DNA from: a phage
Sequence record: NC_100371.1
Reading direction: 5' to 3' (one strand)
Length of the DNA: 64,000 bases
A program made the translations under genes and the position numbers. The notes below the pieces were generated by a model. It was not told the origin of the DNA and did no database searches. It was given only the letters and a program-made list of their open reading frames with translations. Below are positions 1,341 to 28,895 of the stretch, piece after piece. Position 1 is the first letter of the stretch. Every line of letters starts with the position of its first letter.

Positions 1341-1586
1341 TTAGCCAATTACTTCGAAAGTACCCCAACTCCCGTTCAGCAGGCAGGTGATCGGATCACC
1401 ATCATCGTCAATTATTTCAAAGTTTTCAACATCCAGAATATGGTCATCGAACACAATACTTTCGTCACCACCACCAGAAACAACAGTGTATTCCTTACCT
1501 TGAGTCAAGTTTTGACACCCTTTGCCACCAAAACCTACTTCAACACAACGTACTTTCTGTCCTGCGCGAGCAACTACTTCAGCCAT
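1341..1586 (-). CDS. hypothetical small protein (81 aa)
   Basis: ORF with AGGAGA RBS about 6 nt upstream of ATG; co-oriented with the operon. Confidence 0.5.
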   Translation of the reverse strand: MAEVVARAGQKVRCVEVGFGGKGCQNLTQGKEYTVVSGGGDESIVFDDHILDVENFEIIDDDGDPITCLLNGSWGTFEVIG

Positions 1587-1924: not shown

Positions 1925-2300
1925 TCATCAGATCTGCCATAGCGTCACCAACGAAGAGGACAACCACGTCGTTGACAGCGTCAGCATCATCTTTATTGAT
2001 GTTGCTGAATTTGGGGCACACTGCAATGACCATATAGACCCCGTTGCCCAACTGAACAGTGCGTGTAGTGCACATCAGTGTGGTGCTTGTGCCTTCTTTA
2101 AAGGCAAATCCTTGCAGACGTTCTTCCAGAGAGTCACCTGTTGATTTCAACAAGGCAAGATCTCCCAATGCGTAGGTAGTGTCCTCATAGGTCAGTCCAG
2201 AGGTCAATGTTACCTTTCCATCAGAGACTATAATAACTCCATCGGCACCGTCAAGCTCAGAGGCTTCAAAGATATTAATATCCCAAATGTTTTTCATCAC
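1896..2300 (-). CDS. hypothetical protein (134 aa)
   Basis: ORF with GAGGAA RBS-like sequence upstream; ATGA-type overlap with the upstream gene. Confidence 0.45.
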   Translation of the reverse strand: MMKNIWDINIFEASELDGADGVIIVSDGKVTLTSGLTYEDTTYALGDLALLKSTGDSLEERLQGFAFKEGTSTTLMCTTRTVQLGNGVYMVIAVCPKFSNINKDDADAVNDVVVLFVGDAMADLMNAGEAANED

Positions 2301-2569
2301 GCTTCCTCGTCATCTAAGTAATCATCAAGAGAGGTGAAGATTTCACCGAAGTATTCTAATACCTCCAGCTCTCTGGTGGTGCAACAAACATAATCCCCCT
2401 GGTCATCCTTGATAGTAGCCTCCTTACCTAGCACATCCACTTCAAATTCATCGTTTAGCAGGACGGCCCCTGTGTAAATTTTGTCTGCTGTGCAGTCCCG
2501 AAAAGCAGAGTCCTTCTCCAGATAGTCTGGCTTAACCTTGGCTTTAATTCGTTGATATTGTTTGGTCAT
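2297..2569 (-). CDS. hypothetical small protein, paralog family A (AF[RK]DCT ... DD[QE]GD motif)
   Basis: ORF track 2297..2629 (TTG at 2629); preferred ATG at 2569 has a strong AGGAGA RBS and aligns with the N-terminus of the neighbouring paralog 2633..2887. Confidence 0.5.
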   Translation of the reverse strand: MTKQYQRIKAKVKPDYLEKDSAFRDCTADKIYTGAVLLNDEFEVDVLGKEATIKDDQGDYVCCTTRELEVLEYFGEIFTSLDDYLDDEEA

Positions 2570-2632
2570 TGCTGTGGTCTCCTTTCGTTTTGATAGGGCC
2601 ATTATATTAGGCCCCATCACTGTTGTCAAGTA

Positions 2633-2887
2633 TTAATGTTCAGGTTTTACAAAAACTACTTCATTAACAGTGCACCAGACAGAGTCTCCTTCATCATCTT
2701 TAAAGGTAAGGCACTGTGCTGAGTTTTCCAGCTCATCAATCTCTTCTTGTGATAAAGGGGCCCCTTCTTCCAGAAGGGCTTTTACCCGGGGATTCTCACA
2801 AAACTCTGCTTCATAAATTGCACCGACTGTGCAATCTTTAAAAGCTCGGTCATTTGCAACGCATTCTGGCTTCAAAGTGATTTTCAT
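2633..2887 (-). CDS. hypothetical small protein, paralog family A
   Basis: AAGGAGA RBS upstream; shares KP...AFKDCT...IY...KDDEGD pattern with 2297..2569. Confidence 0.5.
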   Translation of the reverse strand: MKITLKPECVANDRAFKDCTVGAIYEAEFCENPRVKALLEEGAPLSQEEIDELENSAQCLTFKDDEGDSVWCTVNEVVFVKPEH

Positions 2888-2962
2888 CTTGGAGGTCTCC
2901 TTAATTATTTGAAATCAACGCTCTGTTTGTGTGAAGCATCTTATATCTAATCTTACTTCTTG

Positions 2963-3334
2963 TCAATGGCTATTTTCAATCAGCCACACAGGGTCGAGGT
3001 AAATTTGTTGGCGTTTTGCCCAATGACAAACTTCATTGTACATCTGAATCTCTTTGTCTGTCAATTCACGAATAGGCTCATCTATACCCTCATTTTTGTG
3101 GTAATCCCAGTCGGCATCGATTTCCCACAACCATGACTTGTTGTCACCACGCTTACGCACACAGAAGTCACCGGGGCGGCCTGCCAGTGCATTTAAGAAC
3201 TCGTTCTCCGCTCGCTCCTGGAGAATACTGAGGAGCAAAACGTTGGAGCATGACTGTAAAATATGCTTCAGCTCGCAGTCATCAATCTCAACTTCAATAC
3301 GTTGCTTGACTGTGTGGGTACCTTTTACTAACAT
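2963..3334 (-). CDS. hypothetical protein
   Basis: ORF track 2963..3361; internal ATG at 3334 has a GAGGAGG RBS and avoids overlap with the upstream gene. Confidence 0.45.
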   Translation of the reverse strand: MLVKGTHTVKQRIEVEIDDCELKHILQSCSNVLLLSILQERAENEFLNALAGRPGDFCVRKRGDNKSWLWEIDADWDYHKNEGIDEPIRELTDKEIQMYNEVCHWAKRQQIYLDPVWLIENSH

Positions 3335-3344
3335 TCTACCTCCT

Positions 3345-3539
3345 CTATACAAACTCTGCAAGGGTTGTGTTGTTCACCGCACCGCAGTAGATGGAATATC
3401 CCAACCCATTATGGTGCAGAAACCACGGCACACCTTGGTCATCCTTCACGTATACATCTCCATTTTCCGTGAAGGGCCAATACTCTTCCCCAAGGGTAAA
3501 ATACCTACTCATACCTTCAGCCAGATACTTTACTTTCAT
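3345..3539 (-). CDS. hypothetical small protein, paralog family B
   Basis: 64-aa ORF; shares KDDQG-x-W[FY] ... hydrophobic C-terminal pattern with the next two genes; ATGA overlap. Confidence 0.45.
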   Translation of the reverse strand: MKVKYLAEGMSRYFTLGEEYWPFTENGDVYVKDDQGVPWFLHHNGLGYSIYCGAVNNTTLAEFV

Positions 3540-3763
3540 AGATCCTCTTCAACAACTACAAACTTGGCAAGCAGGGTGGTCCCATAGATATGATACTCAC
3601 CATTTGCCAGATGGGAGATATACCAGGAGATACCGTCCTCGTCTTCGATCATATTGTTCCTGCGATCCTTATCGTAATAAACCTTGTAGACCTTACCTTC
3701 TTCAAAGAATGACAGGTCTGTCATCTTTTCTTCTACAAACGTAGCTTTAACCAAAGTTGTCAT
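3536..3763 (-). CDS. hypothetical small protein, paralog family B
   Basis: 75-aa ORF; EDEDGISWYISHL...IYGTTLLAKF resembles flanking paralogs; ATGA overlaps on both sides. Confidence 0.45.
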   Translation of the reverse strand: MTTLVKATFVEEKMTDLSFFEEGKVYKVYYDKDRRNNMIEDEDGISWYISHLANGEYHIYGTTLLAKFVVVEEDL

Positions 3764-4044
3764 TGATCTGTCTCCTTCTTGTTGAGCCGGAACACTGCAA
3801 TAATAGCATTTCCAAGATGCAGTGTCAAATCATTCCCCAGATACCATAACATTCCACGGTCATCTTTAATGAAAGGGTAACAATCCGGTGCCTTCCAGAC
3901 ATTATACACTTTGCCGACCTGAAAGAAATCAGGCCCTGTTGGAATTTTAGTACCGGGCCACACTTGGGACACCTGAACGCACTCTACCTGCATAATGACA
4001 GGGATAGTCATGGAGGTAAATGTTTTTGTTGGTTCTACTACCAT
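3760..4044 (-). CDS. hypothetical small protein, paralog family B
   Basis: 94-aa ORF; KDDRGMLWYL...AIIAVF pattern; RBS AGAGGAGA upstream. Confidence 0.45.
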   Translation of the reverse strand: MVVEPTKTFTSMTIPVIMQVECVQVSQVWPGTKIPTGPDFFQVGKVYNVWKAPDCYPFIKDDRGMLWYLGNDLTLHLGNAIIAVFRLNKKETDQ

Positions 4045-4095: not shown

Positions 4096-6873
4096 TTAGT
4101 GACAATCGCCCCAGTTACGACCGCACAAGTATTCACCTGTGATCTGGAACGGAACGCCCATCATTTTAGAAGCCTGCCAGAAGCAATGCACCACCATTTC
4201 GCCCACAGGGCTCCAGATAAGTTCAAGCTTTCCGTCATCATTCAAGATAGGATCATATACCGTATTTCCGTCCTTGTCAACCACTTCGTTTCCATCCTCA
4301 TCCTTGCGTGCCTTTTTGTACTTATGACCGTCGAACACATGAAGTTTAGCCTCCTGCTTGGCCTTAAATGTTTCCAGCTCTTCAATTGTGTCGAAGGTGT
4401 ATACGGTTTTATACTTAGGTGTGTCAGGCACTTGAAGCTGATATTCGTCATGGTAATAAATAATACGACGAACACCCTCATCATACCATCCACGCTTCAC
4501 CATCTGGTGGTGCATGAGTATCCCAACTAAGTCACACAATGATGCACCGCCATTTTGCTGGTATGCATTAAGCAAAGAGTGTTTAGAGCGGGTCCAAATA
4601 GCATGACCGTCAAAAGAGTAGATAAATTTCTTACCTGTTGCTTCCCAGAATTTCTCCAGATCCTCTTTGCGCCCCTTAAGACCTGGGTTGGCATCCCAGA
4701 GAGCATCGATTACTCTCTGCCCCAGTTCTGGAGAGATATCCAGCATATCTGCAACTTTATCTTTTTGTGCCCCATACATAACCCCATACGTGATAGGTTT
4801 ACCATCGTTACGAGACACCTCTCTACCTGCTACTTTTGTATATGCCTCAGCATTGTTTTGGTGCGCGTCCCCGTTACTTACAACATCATAATACAGACCG
4901 TTGTCAAACTCAAAGGCACCCCAGGCCCCGATGAGCTGCTCTAAGTTGGACCCGTCAATACCGATCTCAAAGTATCCCGGAGGAACACCCCACAGACTAC
5001 GCATCTCTTTACCCATAACCACTTTAGGAGATGGTTTAGGCATGTTTGCACAGATACTATGTTTCTGTCTGGAAGTGTTTGTTAATCCAGAACTTTTAGC
5101 AGGAAGCTTGTGGTCAATCTTCAAACGTGGATGATTAAGAAGACCAGTATCAACCTTATCTTCCTTGATTGGATCAAGGACCGATCTGCGGTTTCGCAAT
5201 GATAACCACAAAACGATATCTTTAGCCATCTCTCCGTTCAATTTTTCAAGATTCGGGCACAGGTGTCCAAACGTATCTTTCAGTTGCGGAGAAGTAATAA
5301 GCGCTCTGGCTTTTCTACGTATCTTCCCAAACACTTCCTTTTTAATCCTTTCTGAGTTAGGGAAGCTTCGGAACTTATGCACAGTTGTCTGGAACTTGGC
5401 ATCAGTTTTGTTCCAGAAGTTGATAATTAGATCACAATACTCTGACTCCAAAAGCTCGTCCATATATGCATATACGCGTGCATCAACATCTGCATCAGGT
5501 AAAGCTTTCTTCTTACTATCCTTAGTTACATCTTTAGTTCTCCACATTGTTGGGAGCCAACCAGCACTGATCAGGTATCGCTTGATGTCGTCCTGATTGC
5601 TGATTTTCATAGGTATCTTGCAGTCAGGCATTCGCTTCTGCTGCAGATCACTTATTGCCTGATCCATTAGCTCTTTAGGTAAAGGGTGTGGTGTAGAAGT
5701 TCCTTTGATATACCCCCTCAAGAAATCAGCCATCTTATCTGGGTCTTTACAGCCCATCTCTTCACACCATTTTATCCCCATTTTGCTGACATCTCCTGTG
5801 GAGGTAAATGCTCGCTTAGGTGGAGCTTTGAACTCTAAAGCACTCATGTCCACAGGATAGCCAAGCTTGTCTTTTAACCATTTCCAACCATTATTGGAGA
5901 TTGTCCCATCCTGGTTAAACGGCTTTTCAGGGAACTTAGGCCGCTGAGACATTGATAACTCTTTTAAAGGAAGCTGTGGTTCAACACGATCAGCGATCTC
6001 TTTCATCCACGCATCGCAACGGTCACGTAAAGCAATAGCCCCATCTATGTCGAAATACACCCCCTGTCGAGCCTGCAGCTCCATCAGGAAGTGCTGTAAC
6101 ATGCCTCGGCGTAATGCGTTCTTCCAGGTGATCTTCTTGAAGCCTTTCGGCTTCTCTTTGGCAGGATCGTACATAAAGTTCTGCATGTCAGATTTGCCGT
6201 AGAATACACCTTTTGATTCAGCTACCAACTCCTTCCAGAGCAACTCCTGAATGATAACGTCCTCGAACACACGATCCACATACTTCCACAGCGGAAGCTC
6301 ACGCCAGTCATCGATTTGAACTTTCTGGTTACCAAGGGCATAGCCCCATGCCATAAGGCCATGAGGCCCAACAGGCTGCATTTTCTTGGTAACTGGATTG
6401 AATACTGCGTCCGGACAACCTTTTGGCAAAGGGCGGTCAGGCCACAAGATTCTACTCATCGCTAACGTATCAAACAGATTAACCTGGTGGTCATTGATAG
6501 TTCCCATGCATTTAGGATCACGGAACATATCAAAATGAATACCGGATAATCTTTCCATCAGCATAAAGTCGTAACTGTAGCAGTTATGGCAGTTCAAAGC
6601 CGTAGGTGACCAGTCTGAATTGCCTGTAAGCCAGCCTTCCAACTCTGAAAAATCTGCTATGCGAGCCTCAAAATCTGTATAAAGGGTCTTCTTTGCCAGA
6701 ATGAAGTTCTTAGCTTTCTCCACATCCTCTTCAGAGTAGTGTGTGCGGTCATTTAGGGGAAGGAACAGCATAAAACGGTTCTTATTCAGCTCTTTAAACA
6801 AACCGCAGTGATAATAAAGATCTGGGTCTTCCAGCAAGCCAGAGGCCTCAAAATCGAACGACCACATGCTCAT
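4096..6873 (-). CDS. DNA polymerase, family A (Pol I-like) with N-terminal 3'-5' proofreading exonuclease
   Basis: 925 aa. Exo I-like FDFEASGL near N-terminus; Pol A motif A-like IGIDGSNLEQLIGAW, motif B RNDGKPITYGVMYG, motif C YYHDEYQLQV. AAGGAG RBS upstream of ATG. Confidence 0.9.
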   Translation of the reverse strand: MSMWSFDFEASGLLEDPDLYYHCGLFKELNKNRFMLFLPLNDRTHYSEEDVEKAKNFILAKKTLYTDFEARIADFSELEGWLTGNSDWSPTALNCHNCYSYDFMLMERLSGIHFDMFRDPKCMGTINDHQVNLFDTLAMSRILWPDRPLPKGCPDAVFNPVTKKMQPVGPHGLMAWGYALGNQKVQIDDWRELPLWKYVDRVFEDVIIQELLWKELVAESKGVFYGKSDMQNFMYDPAKEKPKGFKKITWKNALRRGMLQHFLMELQARQGVYFDIDGAIALRDRCDAWMKEIADRVEPQLPLKELSMSQRPKFPEKPFNQDGTISNNGWKWLKDKLGYPVDMSALEFKAPPKRAFTSTGDVSKMGIKWCEEMGCKDPDKMADFLRGYIKGTSTPHPLPKELMDQAISDLQQKRMPDCKIPMKISNQDDIKRYLISAGWLPTMWRTKDVTKDSKKKALPDADVDARVYAYMDELLESEYCDLIINFWNKTDAKFQTTVHKFRSFPNSERIKKEVFGKIRRKARALITSPQLKDTFGHLCPNLEKLNGEMAKDIVLWLSLRNRRSVLDPIKEDKVDTGLLNHPRLKIDHKLPAKSSGLTNTSRQKHSICANMPKPSPKVVMGKEMRSLWGVPPGYFEIGIDGSNLEQLIGAWGAFEFDNGLYYDVVSNGDAHQNNAEAYTKVAGREVSRNDGKPITYGVMYGAQKDKVADMLDISPELGQRVIDALWDANPGLKGRKEDLEKFWEATGKKFIYSFDGHAIWTRSKHSLLNAYQQNGGASLCDLVGILMHHQMVKRGWYDEGVRRIIYYHDEYQLQVPDTPKYKTVYTFDTIEELETFKAKQEAKLHVFDGHKYKKARKDEDGNEVVDKDGNTVYDPILNDDGKLELIWSPVGEMVVHCFWQASKMMGVPFQITGEYLCGRNWGDCH

Positions 6874-6931
6874 ATACAGTTCTCCTTAAAGGGGAGGCGG
6901 TTGTACTACCCCTCCCACTCTTGGTTAAACA

Positions 6932-9010
6932 TTAAAAAGGTGTTTCGTCGTCTTCAAAACCAGGAACGTGGTTAGAGGACGGATCATCATACTGAAGATC
7001 TTCCTGTGTGTCAACAGGGTTAACAGCAGGAGTTATAACCTTATCAGCCACAACCTTGCCCACAGGTGTTTCTACAACTGCATGCTCCTGATCCTCAAAC
7101 ATAGCTTGAGGTCTCCAAACAACCTCTCCACCTTCCCCGTCTGTAAACATCTGCATCTCTTTATCCCAATACCAATTGCTGGCATCGTGGAACTTGCCTG
7201 TGTGGGGATCCATAACTAGGGTGTCCGCAATACCTAAGGTTTTTGCTGGGCGGTTTTTAAGACCTACCAGCCGGACACGCCCACGGGAACGATCCACCAT
7301 CTCCTCTGCCTCTACCCCGACAACCACCCAGCTAAGTTGCTCCAATCCGGCACTACCGCGAAGGTTCTCTTTTCGTACAGGGTACCAGAAAGGTAACGGA
7401 TTTCCATCCTTATCCTTCGGAGGTACAATCTCTGTGCGCTTCAGGTGAGCAATCACCAAGATAAACACATTAAACTGCTTACAGAACGCGGCTAGTTGAG
7501 TCATAGCCATGTCAAGCTCTTTACGCTCATCCTTAACATTAAGCCCTGAAATCACCATAGACAAGTGATCCAGCACAATGTAACGGCAGTGATACAGGCA
7601 CACCATTTGTTTAAGCTTAGTGATCAGCTCATCTACAGGGATGGAGCCGAAATGCTTGAACACTTTGATTTTTCCGGCCTTGGCCCAAGATTGATGAATC
7701 TCAGCGTGCTCCTGATCGGTCAGGAACTGACTGGGGTCTTCAACAAACTCTTTAACATCAAACCCCAGCTGGTTAGCGTACAGAGAGTTGATTGCTTCCT
7801 CTGGATCCTCTTCAAGATGAATCAGGCACAGGCGATCATCCTCTTCATAATCATCAGCTTTAGGGCATGTTGGATCCATCAAGTATCTTGCAATGCAGTG
7901 TTCCAGTTTCTTGGCTACAGTTGTTTTACCACCACCAGATGGGCCTGTCAGCATCATCAAGGTGCCTTTGTGGAGCCCTTTCAGCATCTTCTGCAATTTA
8001 GGGAACTCCGCACTGATATCTACGCCATTGGAAGTCTTCTTACGAAGAGATTCAATGGAGAAGTCTTCTAAATCAGATACAGCATCAGGCACATATTTGA
8101 CTGGGTGACGGAACATGTTGACAATATCTTCCAGCTTTTTAGCCTTCAGCATGTCACGGATATCTTTTACACCATCAGGGTCGTTTACCTCGCCAGGATA
8201 TTCCACGTGGTAAACGTTGTCAGCCATCAAAAATGCTGCGATATTATGTGTAGCTTCAACACCTTTGATAACGTGTTTTTGCTTCTCTACCTCGTTAGCT
8301 GCATCGTTGTCCATTGCAAGGACTACTGTTCCGTAGCTACGGATAAATTTCTCATTGTTCGCAAAAGTGTCTACGGCGTTTGCACACCCGCAGTTAATTC
8401 CGACAAAAGGCAGGCATGGTTTTCCTGCCAGATCACCGCCGTTGATAACTGCATCAATCCCATCCTGGACTTCTTTAGCCCACTGCTTCACCTTCGCTGG
8501 GGCTTTAGCATTGGTGAGAATTCCTTTTACTTGTACCTGATATGCAGCCTGCCACGCTGCAATAACATCTCCTTCCCCCTCACAAACGTTAATCTGCTTG
8601 CGGTTGTTGGAGGATGCACACAGCTTTTGACCAAACATCTGGGAGTTGGCCTTTACTATGCCGACAACCGAGAAATGGCCCCTTTGCTCTTTAGGGATTG
8701 TCCAGTCCCGCTTTTTAAAGCCGGATAGATTACCGTAGCGGTCATAGTACGGGAAGTAGGTGGCAGTAACAGTTACACCATCCTCTTGGGATAGGGATGA
8801 TCGTACACCAAAATATTGTGCAGCCATCAGTCCAATATTTTGTTGTGGAACAGGGACAATTTTAGTGTTTTCTAAAACAGTCTCCACAGTTTCAACTTCT
8901 TTTTCATCACGATAGTCTCGTTTCACACTTCCCCCACTTTTATACTTAGTTGCTTTCGGGTTTGGCTCACCGAAACGGTTGTATGCAGATGCCATGAATT
9001 TACTGCCCAT
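6932..9010 (-). CDS. bifunctional DNA primase (TOPRIM) / replicative helicase, T7 gp4-like organisation
   Basis: 692 aa. TOPRIM signatures (VCEGEGD ... LAMDNDAANE) in N-terminal half; Walker A MLTGPSGGGKTT plus DnaB/gp4-like helicase region in C-terminal half. AAGGAGA RBS 7 nt upstream of ATG 9010. Confidence 0.85.
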   Translation of the reverse strand: MGSKFMASAYNRFGEPNPKATKYKSGGSVKRDYRDEKEVETVETVLENTKIVPVPQQNIGLMAAQYFGVRSSLSQEDGVTVTATYFPYYDRYGNLSGFKKRDWTIPKEQRGHFSVVGIVKANSQMFGQKLCASSNNRKQINVCEGEGDVIAAWQAAYQVQVKGILTNAKAPAKVKQWAKEVQDGIDAVINGGDLAGKPCLPFVGINCGCANAVDTFANNEKFIRSYGTVVLAMDNDAANEVEKQKHVIKGVEATHNIAAFLMADNVYHVEYPGEVNDPDGVKDIRDMLKAKKLEDIVNMFRHPVKYVPDAVSDLEDFSIESLRKKTSNGVDISAEFPKLQKMLKGLHKGTLMMLTGPSGGGKTTVAKKLEHCIARYLMDPTCPKADDYEEDDRLCLIHLEEDPEEAINSLYANQLGFDVKEFVEDPSQFLTDQEHAEIHQSWAKAGKIKVFKHFGSIPVDELITKLKQMVCLYHCRYIVLDHLSMVISGLNVKDERKELDMAMTQLAAFCKQFNVFILVIAHLKRTEIVPPKDKDGNPLPFWYPVRKENLRGSAGLEQLSWVVVGVEAEEMVDRSRGRVRLVGLKNRPAKTLGIADTLVMDPHTGKFHDASNWYWDKEMQMFTDGEGGEVVWRPQAMFEDQEHAVVETPVGKVVADKVITPAVNPVDTQEDLQYDDPSSNHVPGFEDDETPF

Positions 9011-9764
9011 TAATTCTTCTCCTTACTGCAGGCTCGTTTGCTAAGAATACAGCTCTTGCCCAGCCACGTGGTGTAAGGCTTCGAATCATCTTCGTCCTTG
9101 CGCTCTTTCCACCTAGCTTAGCGTGTTGCATGGAATAACCACTAACCACATCAACTATTTGCGGGACAGGCTTTGTGGCAGGGATTATAAATCCATTGCC
9201 TATCCAACCGCAAGTTATTTTTGGGTAGGCATCCCGTGGAGCTATAAATTCAGGAAACCAGGGGTTTACATCATCCTCCGGTAAATACCCGCCATAATCT
9301 GAAGGATGAAAACGGTAATCAGGTTTTCGCCACAGTGTTGACATAACTCCTACAGGGTTCTCTACATGCCACGGGCAATCGTAAATCTCTCCCAACTCTT
9401 CTGCAACCCGAGCATCTTTCACAGCATTAATTTGGATCAGAGGATCCTTAGCCAGCTTTTTCTTAAAGTGTGCAGCTCCGGATACTGCTAAATGCGTGCA
9501 CGGAGGGAATGCAAGAATAAAGTCTGGAGCTGGATACATGCAAAAAGTTTCTTGAGGGAACCATGGATCAATCCAATAATCCACATAGTGAATGTTAGGA
9601 TGATCTGTTATCACCTCTGCATAACTGCCGTGGTCAGCACCTTCTGCATTAAAGCACAGGCACAGGTACCCAGCTTTTGCCCAGTCAATAACTGCACCAC
9701 CCGACCCGTCAAATAGACTCCACACAACACCTTTGTGGTAGTGTTCTTTGTAGATAAATTTCAA
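9000..9764 (-). CDS. putative DNA (cytosine-5)-methyltransferase-like protein
   Basis: Motif I-like VWSLFDGSGG, motif IV-like AFPPCTHLAVSG, motif VI-like HVENPVG in canonical C5-MTase order. ORF-track start (GTG 9794) lies inside a hairpin; TTG at 9764 with GGAGA RBS is preferred. Short for a C5-MTase (~255 aa). Confidence 0.5.
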   Translation of the reverse strand: MKFIYKEHYHKGVVWSLFDGSGGAVIDWAKAGYLCLCFNAEGADHGSYAEVITDHPNIHYVDYWIDPWFPQETFCMYPAPDFILAFPPCTHLAVSGAAHFKKKLAKDPLIQINAVKDARVAEELGEIYDCPWHVENPVGVMSTLWRKPDYRFHPSDYGGYLPEDDVNPWFPEFIAPRDAYPKITCGWIGNGFIIPATKPVPQIVDVVSGYSMQHAKLGGKSARTKMIRSLTPRGWARAVFLANEPAVRRRINGQ

Positions 9765-12472: not shown

Positions 12473-12814
12473 CTACTCAAGGTCTTCAGAGTCAAGCTCA
12501 AAAAGAATCAAACTGTGCATGCCTGCAGAGAGATCAACACACCCTGCAACAATAAGGGTTTGATAGTAAGGTTCAGCACCCTCAATATCTTCGTTAAAAT
12601 CCACAACAAGGTAGTCACCTTTGTTAAAGGTGTATTTGTCCGATGTAAACGCAAAACCTGCCCAGTCCCCTACTGCAGGATCTTTATCAGTCACCTTTGT
12701 TAGCAGTAGATCTTTTTCACGAGATCTTTTAGTAAAATCGTGAATCACAACATCCTTCTCTTCAGGAGTCGGATTGCCACACACGTAGTTAACGATATTT
12801 CTCCACAAACTCAT
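12473..12814 (-). CDS. hypothetical protein (113 aa)
   Basis: Co-oriented ORF; ATGA overlap with the upstream gene. Confidence 0.45.
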   Translation of the reverse strand: MSLWRNIVNYVCGNPTPEEKDVVIHDFTKRSREKDLLLTKVTDKDPAVGDWAGFAFTSDKYTFNKGDYLVVDFNEDIEGAEPYYQTLIVAGCVDLSAGMHSLILFELDSEDLE

Positions 12815-13458
12815 ACGTCCCCCTTTTCTGCTCTAGTTTCAAAATCTTTCCTGACTTTCTCGTCTAAACCAGGGAAAGTTGTATTATAAAACTCTACGAC
12901 TCTCGGGTCAACAATAATATCCACCTCTCTTAATGGACGCAACAAGTTTATTCCTTGTATCGTCTTAACCCGACTCAAGGCAACATACGTCATTCCGGGA
13001 GAGAAAGCTCCGTTCTTTCCGAGGTCTAGGTTGTAACAATCTAACGTAAGTCCTTGACTTTTATGCGATGTTACTGCGTACCCAGATTTCAAAGGAAGTT
13101 GCTCATAAGACCCGATCACAACCCTCTCTATGAACTTCTCCATCTTCCTTTCGGCAATATTGTACCTCTGGGAAGGTTTGTACTCGTTATTCTCCCACAA
13201 TCTCGGCTCAATTTCAACCTGTGTCCCGTCTTCCAGCTCAACCACCACAGACTTGGTCTTGAATTTTACCACTGTGGCTCGTGTCCCGTTGACATAGTAC
13301 GGAACTTTGTGTGTCGGGTCAACATCGTTTGAGGTTATCATAACCTTCATCCCTATCTTCAGCCTCATTTCCTGCTCCACAGGTAGTGTGGAAGGGAACT
13401 TACCTTTCATTTTACCAATGTAGGTCTTCTCTGGGGCCTTGATGGCATCATAGAAACG
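12811..13458 (-). pseudogene. Pif1/RecD/Dda-like SF1B helicase, C-terminal part (frame-shifted relative to the N-terminal part)
   Basis: Contains helicase motifs V/VI (VTSHKSQGLTLD, TYVALSRVKT). This frame is open upstream to 13458 and overlaps the end of the N-terminal ORF in a different frame. Confidence 0.7.
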
Positions 13459-28324: not shown

Positions 28325-28428
28325 TCTGTTTTAAGGCCTCAAACGAGGCCTGTGCCTTCATAAACTGCCTACCTCTGTGTGATTACCTCTCTAAATAAAA
28401 TACCCTCTCAAATTGCTTAAAATTAAGC

Positions 28429-28487: not shown

Positions 28488-28895
28488 ATGGATAATCTTG
28501 CAAGTGTGAACGTCGAAATTGTTAAACTAAAGTTCTTGGGCTTTCGAGACCCTAATTCTCTAACAGCTATACTGATGGATACCCACTTCACACCTGGGAA
28601 AGAGTACACTGCCTTCCGTTATATTTGTGGAGATCACGAATCGGCCTATAGTGTGAATACAAACCTCGGCGAGGGGTATTTCATCAAAGATATCACAGAT
28701 CACTTGTGGGGTATGTGGGAATTGGTGGAAGAAGAGAATAAATCCCTTCCCAAAGAGATTTGGGTGCACACCTTCCACACAGGTAAGTTCGGAGGTACGG
28801 AACATAAGTCTATCCACTATGAAGAAGAAAGTGCCATCAAACAACAAGCTGTGCTTGGTGGATCTGTAGAAAAATTTGTTAAATGCGAGGACTGA
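28488..28895 (+). CDS. hypothetical protein (135 aa)
   Basis: ORF track 28413..28895; ATG 28488 preferred (GAGGAG RBS, downstream of promoter). Confidence 0.5.
   Translation: MDNLASVNVEIVKLKFLGFRDPNSLTAILMDTHFTPGKEYTAFRYICGDHESAYSVNTNLGEGYFIKDITDHLWGMWELVEEENKSLPKEIWVHTFHTGKFGGTEHKSIHYEEESAIKQQAVLGGSVEKFVKCED

Follow-up and report, generated by a model that had tools for sequence, protein, structure and literature searches.

The window analysed here, a 64,000-nucleotide stretch of an rV5-like myophage of the genus Vequintavirus, carries two tandem families of small paralogous genes, A (A1 and A2) and B (B1, B2 and B3), and the B genes encode a domain that is widespread among phages of Gram-negative and Gram-positive hosts and is without a Pfam model. 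With A1 and A2 counted at profile-level support, the window holds at least seven copies rather than the five initially listed (Table 1). We propose that these duplicated small beta-barrel domain genes probably act as acidic protein-binding modules, likely on host or defence proteins, or possibly on replisome partners.

Table 1. Genes, expression signals and structural elements of the A and B families in the window
Feature	Coordinates	Strand	Description
B3	3760..4044	-	94 aa; first gene past the DNA polymerase; B-type beta-barrel domain; phrog_12922 match 1e-67
B3 loop between strands 1 and 2	3760..4044	-	long insert
B3 ribosome-binding site	upstream of B3 ATG	-	GAGAGGAGA
B2	3536..3763	-	75 aa; B-type beta-barrel; start overlaps B3 stop codon (ATGA)
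B1	3345..3539	-	64 aa; B-type beta-barrel; start overlaps B2 stop codon (ATGA)
A2	2633..2887	-	84 aa; divergent SH3-like barrel; two-helix insert between strands 2 and 3
Promoter	2601..2629	-	A2/A1 spacer; TTGACA-N17-TATAAT; 12/12 match to the sigma-70 consensus
A1	2297..2569	-	90 aa; A2 paralog without the helical insert
A1 C-terminus	2297..2569	-	acidic tail SLDDYLDDEEA
A1 ribosome-binding site	before ATG 2569	-	AAAGGAGA
Fourth B-superfamily gene	1341..1586	-	81 aa; phrog_4927
Fifth B-superfamily member	28488..28895	+	135 aa; phrog_15992; separate gene cluster; one B-type domain at about residues 31-89

The A and B genes sit within the replication-gene transcription unit, just 3' of DNA polymerase. 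The array directly follows the genes for a primase-helicase (6932-9010) and an intact 925-aa family-A DNA polymerase (4096-6873), and the rV5 genome paper assigns these genes to transcription unit 10-1-238-164, with host-type promoters, mentioning no paralog families (PMC3606486). At the nucleotide level, region 1300-4200 matches two Escherichia phages, ECP2303 and ECP2309, at 97% identity, and FV3 at 96%; in FV3 the counterparts are ORF200-205, every one annotated as hypothetical; at least 80% of the region is covered in 114 of the 117 matching phage records.

All five ORFs of the array are present on the minus strand, and they are real accessory genes that code for proteins in this Vequintavirus phage. 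A GGAG-type ribosome-binding site lies upstream of each of the five ATG starts, and because such a site precedes ATG 2569 we take this codon as the start of A1; a longer alternative beginning at TTG 2629 was rejected, as this TTG belongs to the -35 box of the consensus promoter in the A2/A1 spacer. The -10 box of the same promoter falls within the loop of a GGGCC/GGCCC hairpin, and further host-type sigma-70-like promoter sites occur in and around the array. Comparison with FV3, rV5_ev147, HdK5 and YN3 revealed purifying selection on all five genes (dN/dS 0.00-0.25), including B3 (dN 0.000 at dS 0.56-0.80), B1 (dN/dS 0.03-0.11) and A1 (0.03-0.06). Judging from the promoter-like sequences, the genes would be expressed at the same time as the replication genes, and B3, B2 and B1 would be co-expressed by translational coupling through their ATGA overlaps, which were read directly at 3760-3763 and 3536-3539, as initially described.

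The initial annotation proposed two tandem paralog families, and Smith-Waterman scores compared with 2000 shuffles bear this out. A1 and A2 scored 99 against 26.2 +/- 4.9 for shuffled sequences (z 14.9, Gumbel P 3e-9), and within B the pairs B1-B2 (z 8.7, P 8e-6), B2-B3 (z 9.5, P 3e-6) and B1-B3 (z 5.5, P 5e-4) were likewise significant, so that similarity between paralogs holds throughout, at P values from 3e-9 to 5e-4. None of the pairs involving the four neighbouring genes reached P < 3e-3 in the same test. Each protein also matched the PHROG of its paralog. The A motif KP...AF[RK]DCT...IY...KDD[QE]GD is exact in A1 and A2. The core described for B, DD-x-G-x-W[YF], is present with a different spacing, its true form being D-[DE]-x-G-x-x-W-[YF], in which G and W stand two residues apart rather than one, and the KDDxG element that had been ascribed to all five proteins reads EDEDG in B2 of this window. 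The three B genes originated by tandem duplication.

Searches beyond the genus showed that the B-type domain, about 60-75 residues long and present in one copy per B gene, is found far outside Vequintavirus. Scans of all members against Pfam, NCBIfam and PADLOC gave nothing above threshold, and when the A and B profiles were searched against 5.8 billion word-indexed proteins, or 50,697 phage records were queried by tblastn, only Vequintavirus relatives came back. An exhaustive HMMER search with the B profile of 1.84 billion representative proteins found few proteins (P0095-P0108), among them proteins of 60-67 aa with a single domain, proteins with two repeats, of which one is fused to DUF3310, and proteins with 4-6 tandem copies of the B-type unit. 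Four of the matches (P0096, P0098, P0101 and P0103; 1636-2562 aa), which are repeat proteins with ankyrin-type and surface repeats among them, were discarded because their scores were sums of weak repeats. In annotated phages, recognisable relatives occur mostly in Enterococcus phages, and PHROG scans linked them to phrog_3523, 4927, 10169, 3249 and 16833, all annotated as of unknown function. Proteins of this network, such as gp10 of Enterococcus phage IME-EF4, share with B an FTxGKxYxV...DDxG domain, but they carry 2-6 repeats per polypeptide and often a C-terminal coiled coil or DUF3310, whereas B consists of separate, translationally coupled genes. The domain thus occurs as single genes, tandem gene arrays, 2-6 internal repeats and DUF3310 fusions, with a common signature of strand 1, a loop, [FW][TF]xGKxYxV, hxhxD[DE]xGxxW[YF] and a hydrophobic C-terminal strand. 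The 'cytidine deaminase' labels of two Enterococcus/Streptococcus phage homologues were dropped, as these proteins are without a deaminase domain.

A profile built solely from the foreign repeats and run on 475 window ORFs recovered B2 (E 1.4e-11), B3 (6.5e-9), B1 (7.3e-9) and the gene at 1341-1586 (1.6e-8), and the B family aligned to a foreign-only profile in hhalign at P 1.9e-11. Enlarging the superfamily HMM added the gene at 28488-28895 (E 2.1e-7; hhalign P 1e-6, probability 91%), whose start at ATG 28488 was set by the start of its PHROG match (a longer alternative begins at 28413). Both additional genes had been missed by the initial annotation. In single-sequence hhalign 1341-1586 gave P 3e-12, a test that is not independent, since the profile includes this gene and its ortholog from the diverged relative L011; its dN/dS is 0.00 against FV3, with no amino-acid differences, and 0.21-0.26 against three other Vequintavirus genomes. 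Outside the window, FV3_00148 scored 1.4e-4. Recurrent matches to DUF7244 (PF23896) below its cut-off of 27 bits (1341-1586, 15.6; P0108, 21.8; IME-EF4 gp10, 15.6; L008, 13.5) suggest a related family rather than membership.

Whether A and B are distantly related to each other, as had been suggested from KDDxG, depends on the depth of the comparison. KDDxG by itself is not evidence of kinship, because this Asp-box-like hairpin is also found in unrelated folds such as sortilin. One alternative is therefore that A and B are unrelated small beta-barrels in which the hairpin turn arose by convergence, and several results are consistent with it: pairwise Smith-Waterman comparison of A with B was not significant (best P 0.02), hhalign with shallow profiles gave P 0.041 over 20 columns confined to the hairpin, superfamily HMM searches gave A1 and A2 E-values of 0.2-1.3, also not significant, and sortilin Asp-boxes in the PDB match the same hairpin motif. 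The sortilin matches are at motif level only (E 1.3-2), and a barrel is predicted rather than the beta-propeller of repeated S-x-D-x-G-x-x-W hairpins that marks the Asp-box/BNR group, placing the proteins outside it. Set against convergence is a deeper test, in which the A family was enriched with two diverged orthologs and compared with a superfamily profile free of any A sequence. This comparison gave P 4.4e-5 over 32 columns, with a score of 27.6 compared to a maximum of 17.6 among 300 column shuffles (0/300 reaching the observed score), and removal of all Vequintavirus rows from the profile left a P of 3.3e-5 (0/200 shuffles; 0/500 over both tests) compared to P 0.09-0.78 for neighbouring genes. 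The HH probability of the match between A and the superfamily is 69-72%.

The content of the alignment argues in the same direction. Beyond KDDxG alone, A and the superfamily share two collinear motifs (AFxDCTxGxxY with FTxGKxYxV, and hthKDDxGD with hxIxDDxG), A and B match the same stretch of the Vequintavirus-free profile (27-58 and 27-64), and the aligned segments coincide with predicted strands in the models of both B2 and A2, whose strand registers agree. A2 and A1 rank next after the five members among 232 window ORFs, and bridging sequences include the DUF3310 fusion L008, which scores on both the A and B profiles, phrog_17459, matched by A and by B, and P0108. We therefore regard convergence of unrelated barrels as doubtful, while giving it appreciable weight, and the profile comparisons support, without proving, the view that A1 and A2 belong to the B superfamily as a further-diverged SH3-like branch with five strands. 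Profile searches, put forward initially as a check, carried B to foreign families, and the modelled A2 matched SH3 folds in general rather than the specific relative found for B2.

That relative is Gp54 of Escherichia phage Bas11 (PDB 9AXB; PF25180, 'Phage antiviral trigger protein Gp54'; PHROG 7421; Zhang et al., Nature 2024). The model of B2, built from a 26-sequence alignment without templates (pLDDT 92.5, pTM 0.81), has six strands, the first two joined by a long connection that contains a short helix, and this predicted fold closely matches the six-stranded barrel with a prominent strand 1-2 loop seen in Gp54. Like B2, Gp54 is an acidic, single-domain protein (66 aa) whose strands 1 and 2 are separated by a long loop, and like the B genes it is encoded among small accessory genes. 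The two proteins also have in common the order F-x-x-G/G-x-x-W (F21/G24/G40/W43 in Gp54; F20/G23/G44/W47 in B2), in which G24 and W43 of Gp54 are sites of CapRel escape mutations. Gp54 is small and non-essential and binds directly to the antitoxin domain of CapRel (PMC11578894); its close homologues in Bas5, Bas8, Bas10 and SECphi27 do not activate CapRel (PMC11578894). The systems differ in that Gp54 is a single gene of a T1-like siphophage, whereas B is a tandem triplet plus further copies in an rV5-like myophage.

Because sequence tests detect no homology, the connection to Gp54 is one of predicted structure only. B1, B2 and B3 had no match to PF25180 at E <= 10 (gathering threshold 27 bits), compared to 116 bits for Bas11 Gp54, and hhalign of the Gp54 family with the B family or the superfamily was not significant (P 0.49 and 0.14, respectively), so the likeness could reflect convergence among SH3-like barrels. 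Sequence searches of the PDB with the B and superfamily profiles returned nothing meaningful. A Foldseek search of BFVD turned up dozens of small phage proteins with this fold (TM 0.7-0.8), all uncharacterised, mostly from T1-like phages with several per genome, and others from CR9 and phAPEC8. The A2 model is of moderate confidence, and its fold search returned generic SH3 folds, not Gp54; the barrel is five-stranded and superposable on SH3 domains. SH3-like barrels (SH3, MIB/HERC2 and the retroviral integrase C-terminal domain) have no sequence relationship to A or B, and, compared to these, A2 adds a 25-residue two-helix insert and B adds a sixth strand.

The array is stable within the genus and variable outside it. 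Its arrangement is fixed within Vequintavirus, with the A pair in 115/115 matching records. The BASEL Vequintavirus Bas52 has an ortholog of A1, bas52_0082. In some isolates A2 or B3 is frameshifted, or B3 contains an internal duplication of 11 residues, and the genes therefore tolerate damage. In L011, a diverged rV5-like relative with 97% protein identity in DNA polymerase and 77-81% nucleotide identity in alignable core genes, seven B-type genes lie between the polymerase and a phrog_6273 homolog, alongside the A pair and a homolog of 1341-1586. Thus the comparison of copy number that had been suggested initially gave a number fixed within the genus and ranging from 3 to 7 B-type genes between relatives. 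The L011 orthologs of the A and B genes show 45-73% protein identity, and given the identity of the polymerases, the A and B genes diverge far faster than the core. No A or B homologues were detectable at this position in 4MG, Seu621, EspYZU14 and Ro1, or in ICP1. The DUF551 gene that follows the 4MG polymerase is unrelated.

The predicted proteins are acidic (pI 4.1-5.2, except B3 at 6.5), and as acidic, soluble, single-domain modules they would most likely act by binding other proteins, with host factors, defence components and possibly the phage replisome as candidate partners. Duplication and fast divergence may have produced different binding specificities, and, by analogy with Gp54, host immune sensors could detect these proteins. 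We favour host or defence proteins as the targets, because the genes show the fast evolution and dispensable behaviour of accessory genes and because the one structural relative that has been characterised, Gp54, binds an immune protein of the host. The position next to the polymerase and the DUF3310 fusions would be just as compatible with involvement in replication or nucleotide metabolism, and the proteins might be small adaptors linking enzymes or accessory factors to the phage's own replisome. The location of the array directly downstream of the primase-helicase and polymerase genes is consistent with such adaptors, as are the DUF3310 fusions found elsewhere (P0107 and L008; DUF3310 is labelled nucleotide kinase by PHROGs), the occurrence of the domain in other phages next to a nucleoside deoxyribosyltransferase, a dNMP kinase and a primase, and the acidic tail of A1, which to us recalls replisome-interaction tails. 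Replisome adaptors would not be expected to diverge so much faster than the polymerase or to vary so widely in copy number between relatives; moreover, sister genera have different genes at this position, and the frameshifts in some isolates are what would be expected of dispensable accessory genes. On this evidence we consider the adaptor role unlikely, yet a serious rival in view of the genomic position and the DUF3310 fusions.

Direct binding of nucleic acid, with regulation of transcription or translation as its outcome, appears highly improbable. SH3-like, Sm, KOW and Tudor-type barrels often bind nucleic acids, the SH3-like fold matches include integrase C-terminal domains, KOW and PAZ, and PHROG 14634, a related one, bears the label 'DNA binding protein'. 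However, four of the five proteins have a net charge of -4 to -12 and a pI of 4.1-4.8, making this role unlikely; their composition suggests no basic surface, and none matched a nucleic-acid-binding family in Pfam or NCBIfam. Binding to host or defence proteins continues to be our preferred reading.

Tandem families of small accessory genes are commonplace in large phages. The analysis defines a domain not represented in Pfam. In over 100 sequenced rV5-like phages, including several used in biocontrol or therapy, these genes carry the label 'hypothetical', and with at least seven genes per genome carrying one domain, many orphan genes collapse into one family. A broader interpretation is that the Gp54 fold, described as very rare, marks a large pan-phage superfamily of small protein-binding modules that has been amplified in tandem (3-7 genes here; in Enterococcus phages, 2-6 repeats within one protein) as diversifiable inhibitors of host factors or defence, and that CapRel-type sensors recognise the fold as a molecular pattern; we regard this as quite unlikely at present. 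Among proteins with this fold, only Gp54 of Bas11 has been characterised, as one that directly triggers a toxin-antitoxin immune sensor, and a large, diversifying family with the same predicted fold provides concrete candidates for testing what Gp54-like proteins do for the phage. In sum, the family allows one to ask whether immune sensors recognise the Gp54-type fold more generally.

The A2/A1 spacer (2570–2632) contains a perfect match to the σ70 consensus promoter, and the loop of a GGGCC/GGCCC hairpin holds its −10 box. The TTG called by the ORF finder as the start of a long form of A1, one of the two predicted SH3-like barrel paralogs, is part of the −35 box of this promoter. Four further sites on the same strand match at 11 of 12 positions, and the total of promoter-like sites was 19, compared to 10.1 ± 3.3 in shuffled sequences. 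The products of the paralog pair differ at the C-terminus, where A1 ends in the acidic tail FGEIFTSLDDYLDDEEA, which A2 lacks; speculatively, this tail is reminiscent of the partner-binding tails of SSB-type proteins.

Features in and around the array and in related records
Feature	Location	Strand	Remarks
σ70 consensus promoter, TTGACA-N17-TATAAT	2601-2629	minus	12/12 match
Four promoter sites	7014, 4280, 3828, 3064	minus	11/12 match
A1 C-terminus	2297-2350	minus	acidic tail with aromatic residue(s)
DNA polymerase gene	4096-6873	minus	intact, 925 aa
ORF	12811-13410	minus	weak, non-significant domain profile match, E 0.087
FV3_00148 (phage FV3)	L018:14172-14423, outside window		domain family match, E 1.4e-4
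Bas11 small ORF	L007:47216-47653		weak B-type profile match, E 3.5e-4
Bas11 small ORF	L007:45147-45338		weak B-type profile match, E 2e-3
Bas11 small ORF	L007:37578-37943		weak B-type profile match, E 0.02
Enterococcus phage IME-EF4 gp10	L015:1471-2133		labelled 'cytidine deaminase'
Streptococcus phage SP-QS1 gp64	L016:1471-2103		labelled 'cytidine deaminase'

Upstream of the array, the DNA polymerase gene is uninterrupted, in contrast to FV3, rV5 and several BASEL relatives, in which an HNH homing endonuclease insertion interrupts it. The array itself is expanded to seven B-type genes in a diverged rV5-like phage contig within a bacterial assembly (positions 4900-9700 of our extract L011; GCA_012894635.1, contig AATLQU010000010.1), including two (6280-6507 and 7098-7352) overlooked by the collection's gene caller, and an Ead/Ea22-like gene is inserted after the B3 homolog. 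Over the array region, 16 MG0656xx records titled 'Campylobacter phage', with C. jejuni as the listed host, showed ~91% identity to E. coli rV5-like phages, and these deposits look like cases of a mislabelled host or contamination.

Searches for the barrel domain that includes B1–B3 revealed candidates elsewhere. FV3_00148, located in a small-ORF region in a scan covering FV3 outside coordinates 46-88 kb, is likely an additional family member, and its motif FDCDDDGDDRYVCEV looks intermediate between the A and B types. IME-EF4 gp10 and SP-QS1 gp64 each consist of two barrel domains followed by a coiled-coil tail; the deaminase domain is absent from both, and the label is probably a propagated annotation error. 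Finally, three small ORFs of phage Bas11 matched the B-type profile weakly, and Gp54, the CapRel-triggering barrel of this phage, was unmatched in the same search, suggesting from these profile comparisons that both kinds of barrel may be present together in T1-like phages.
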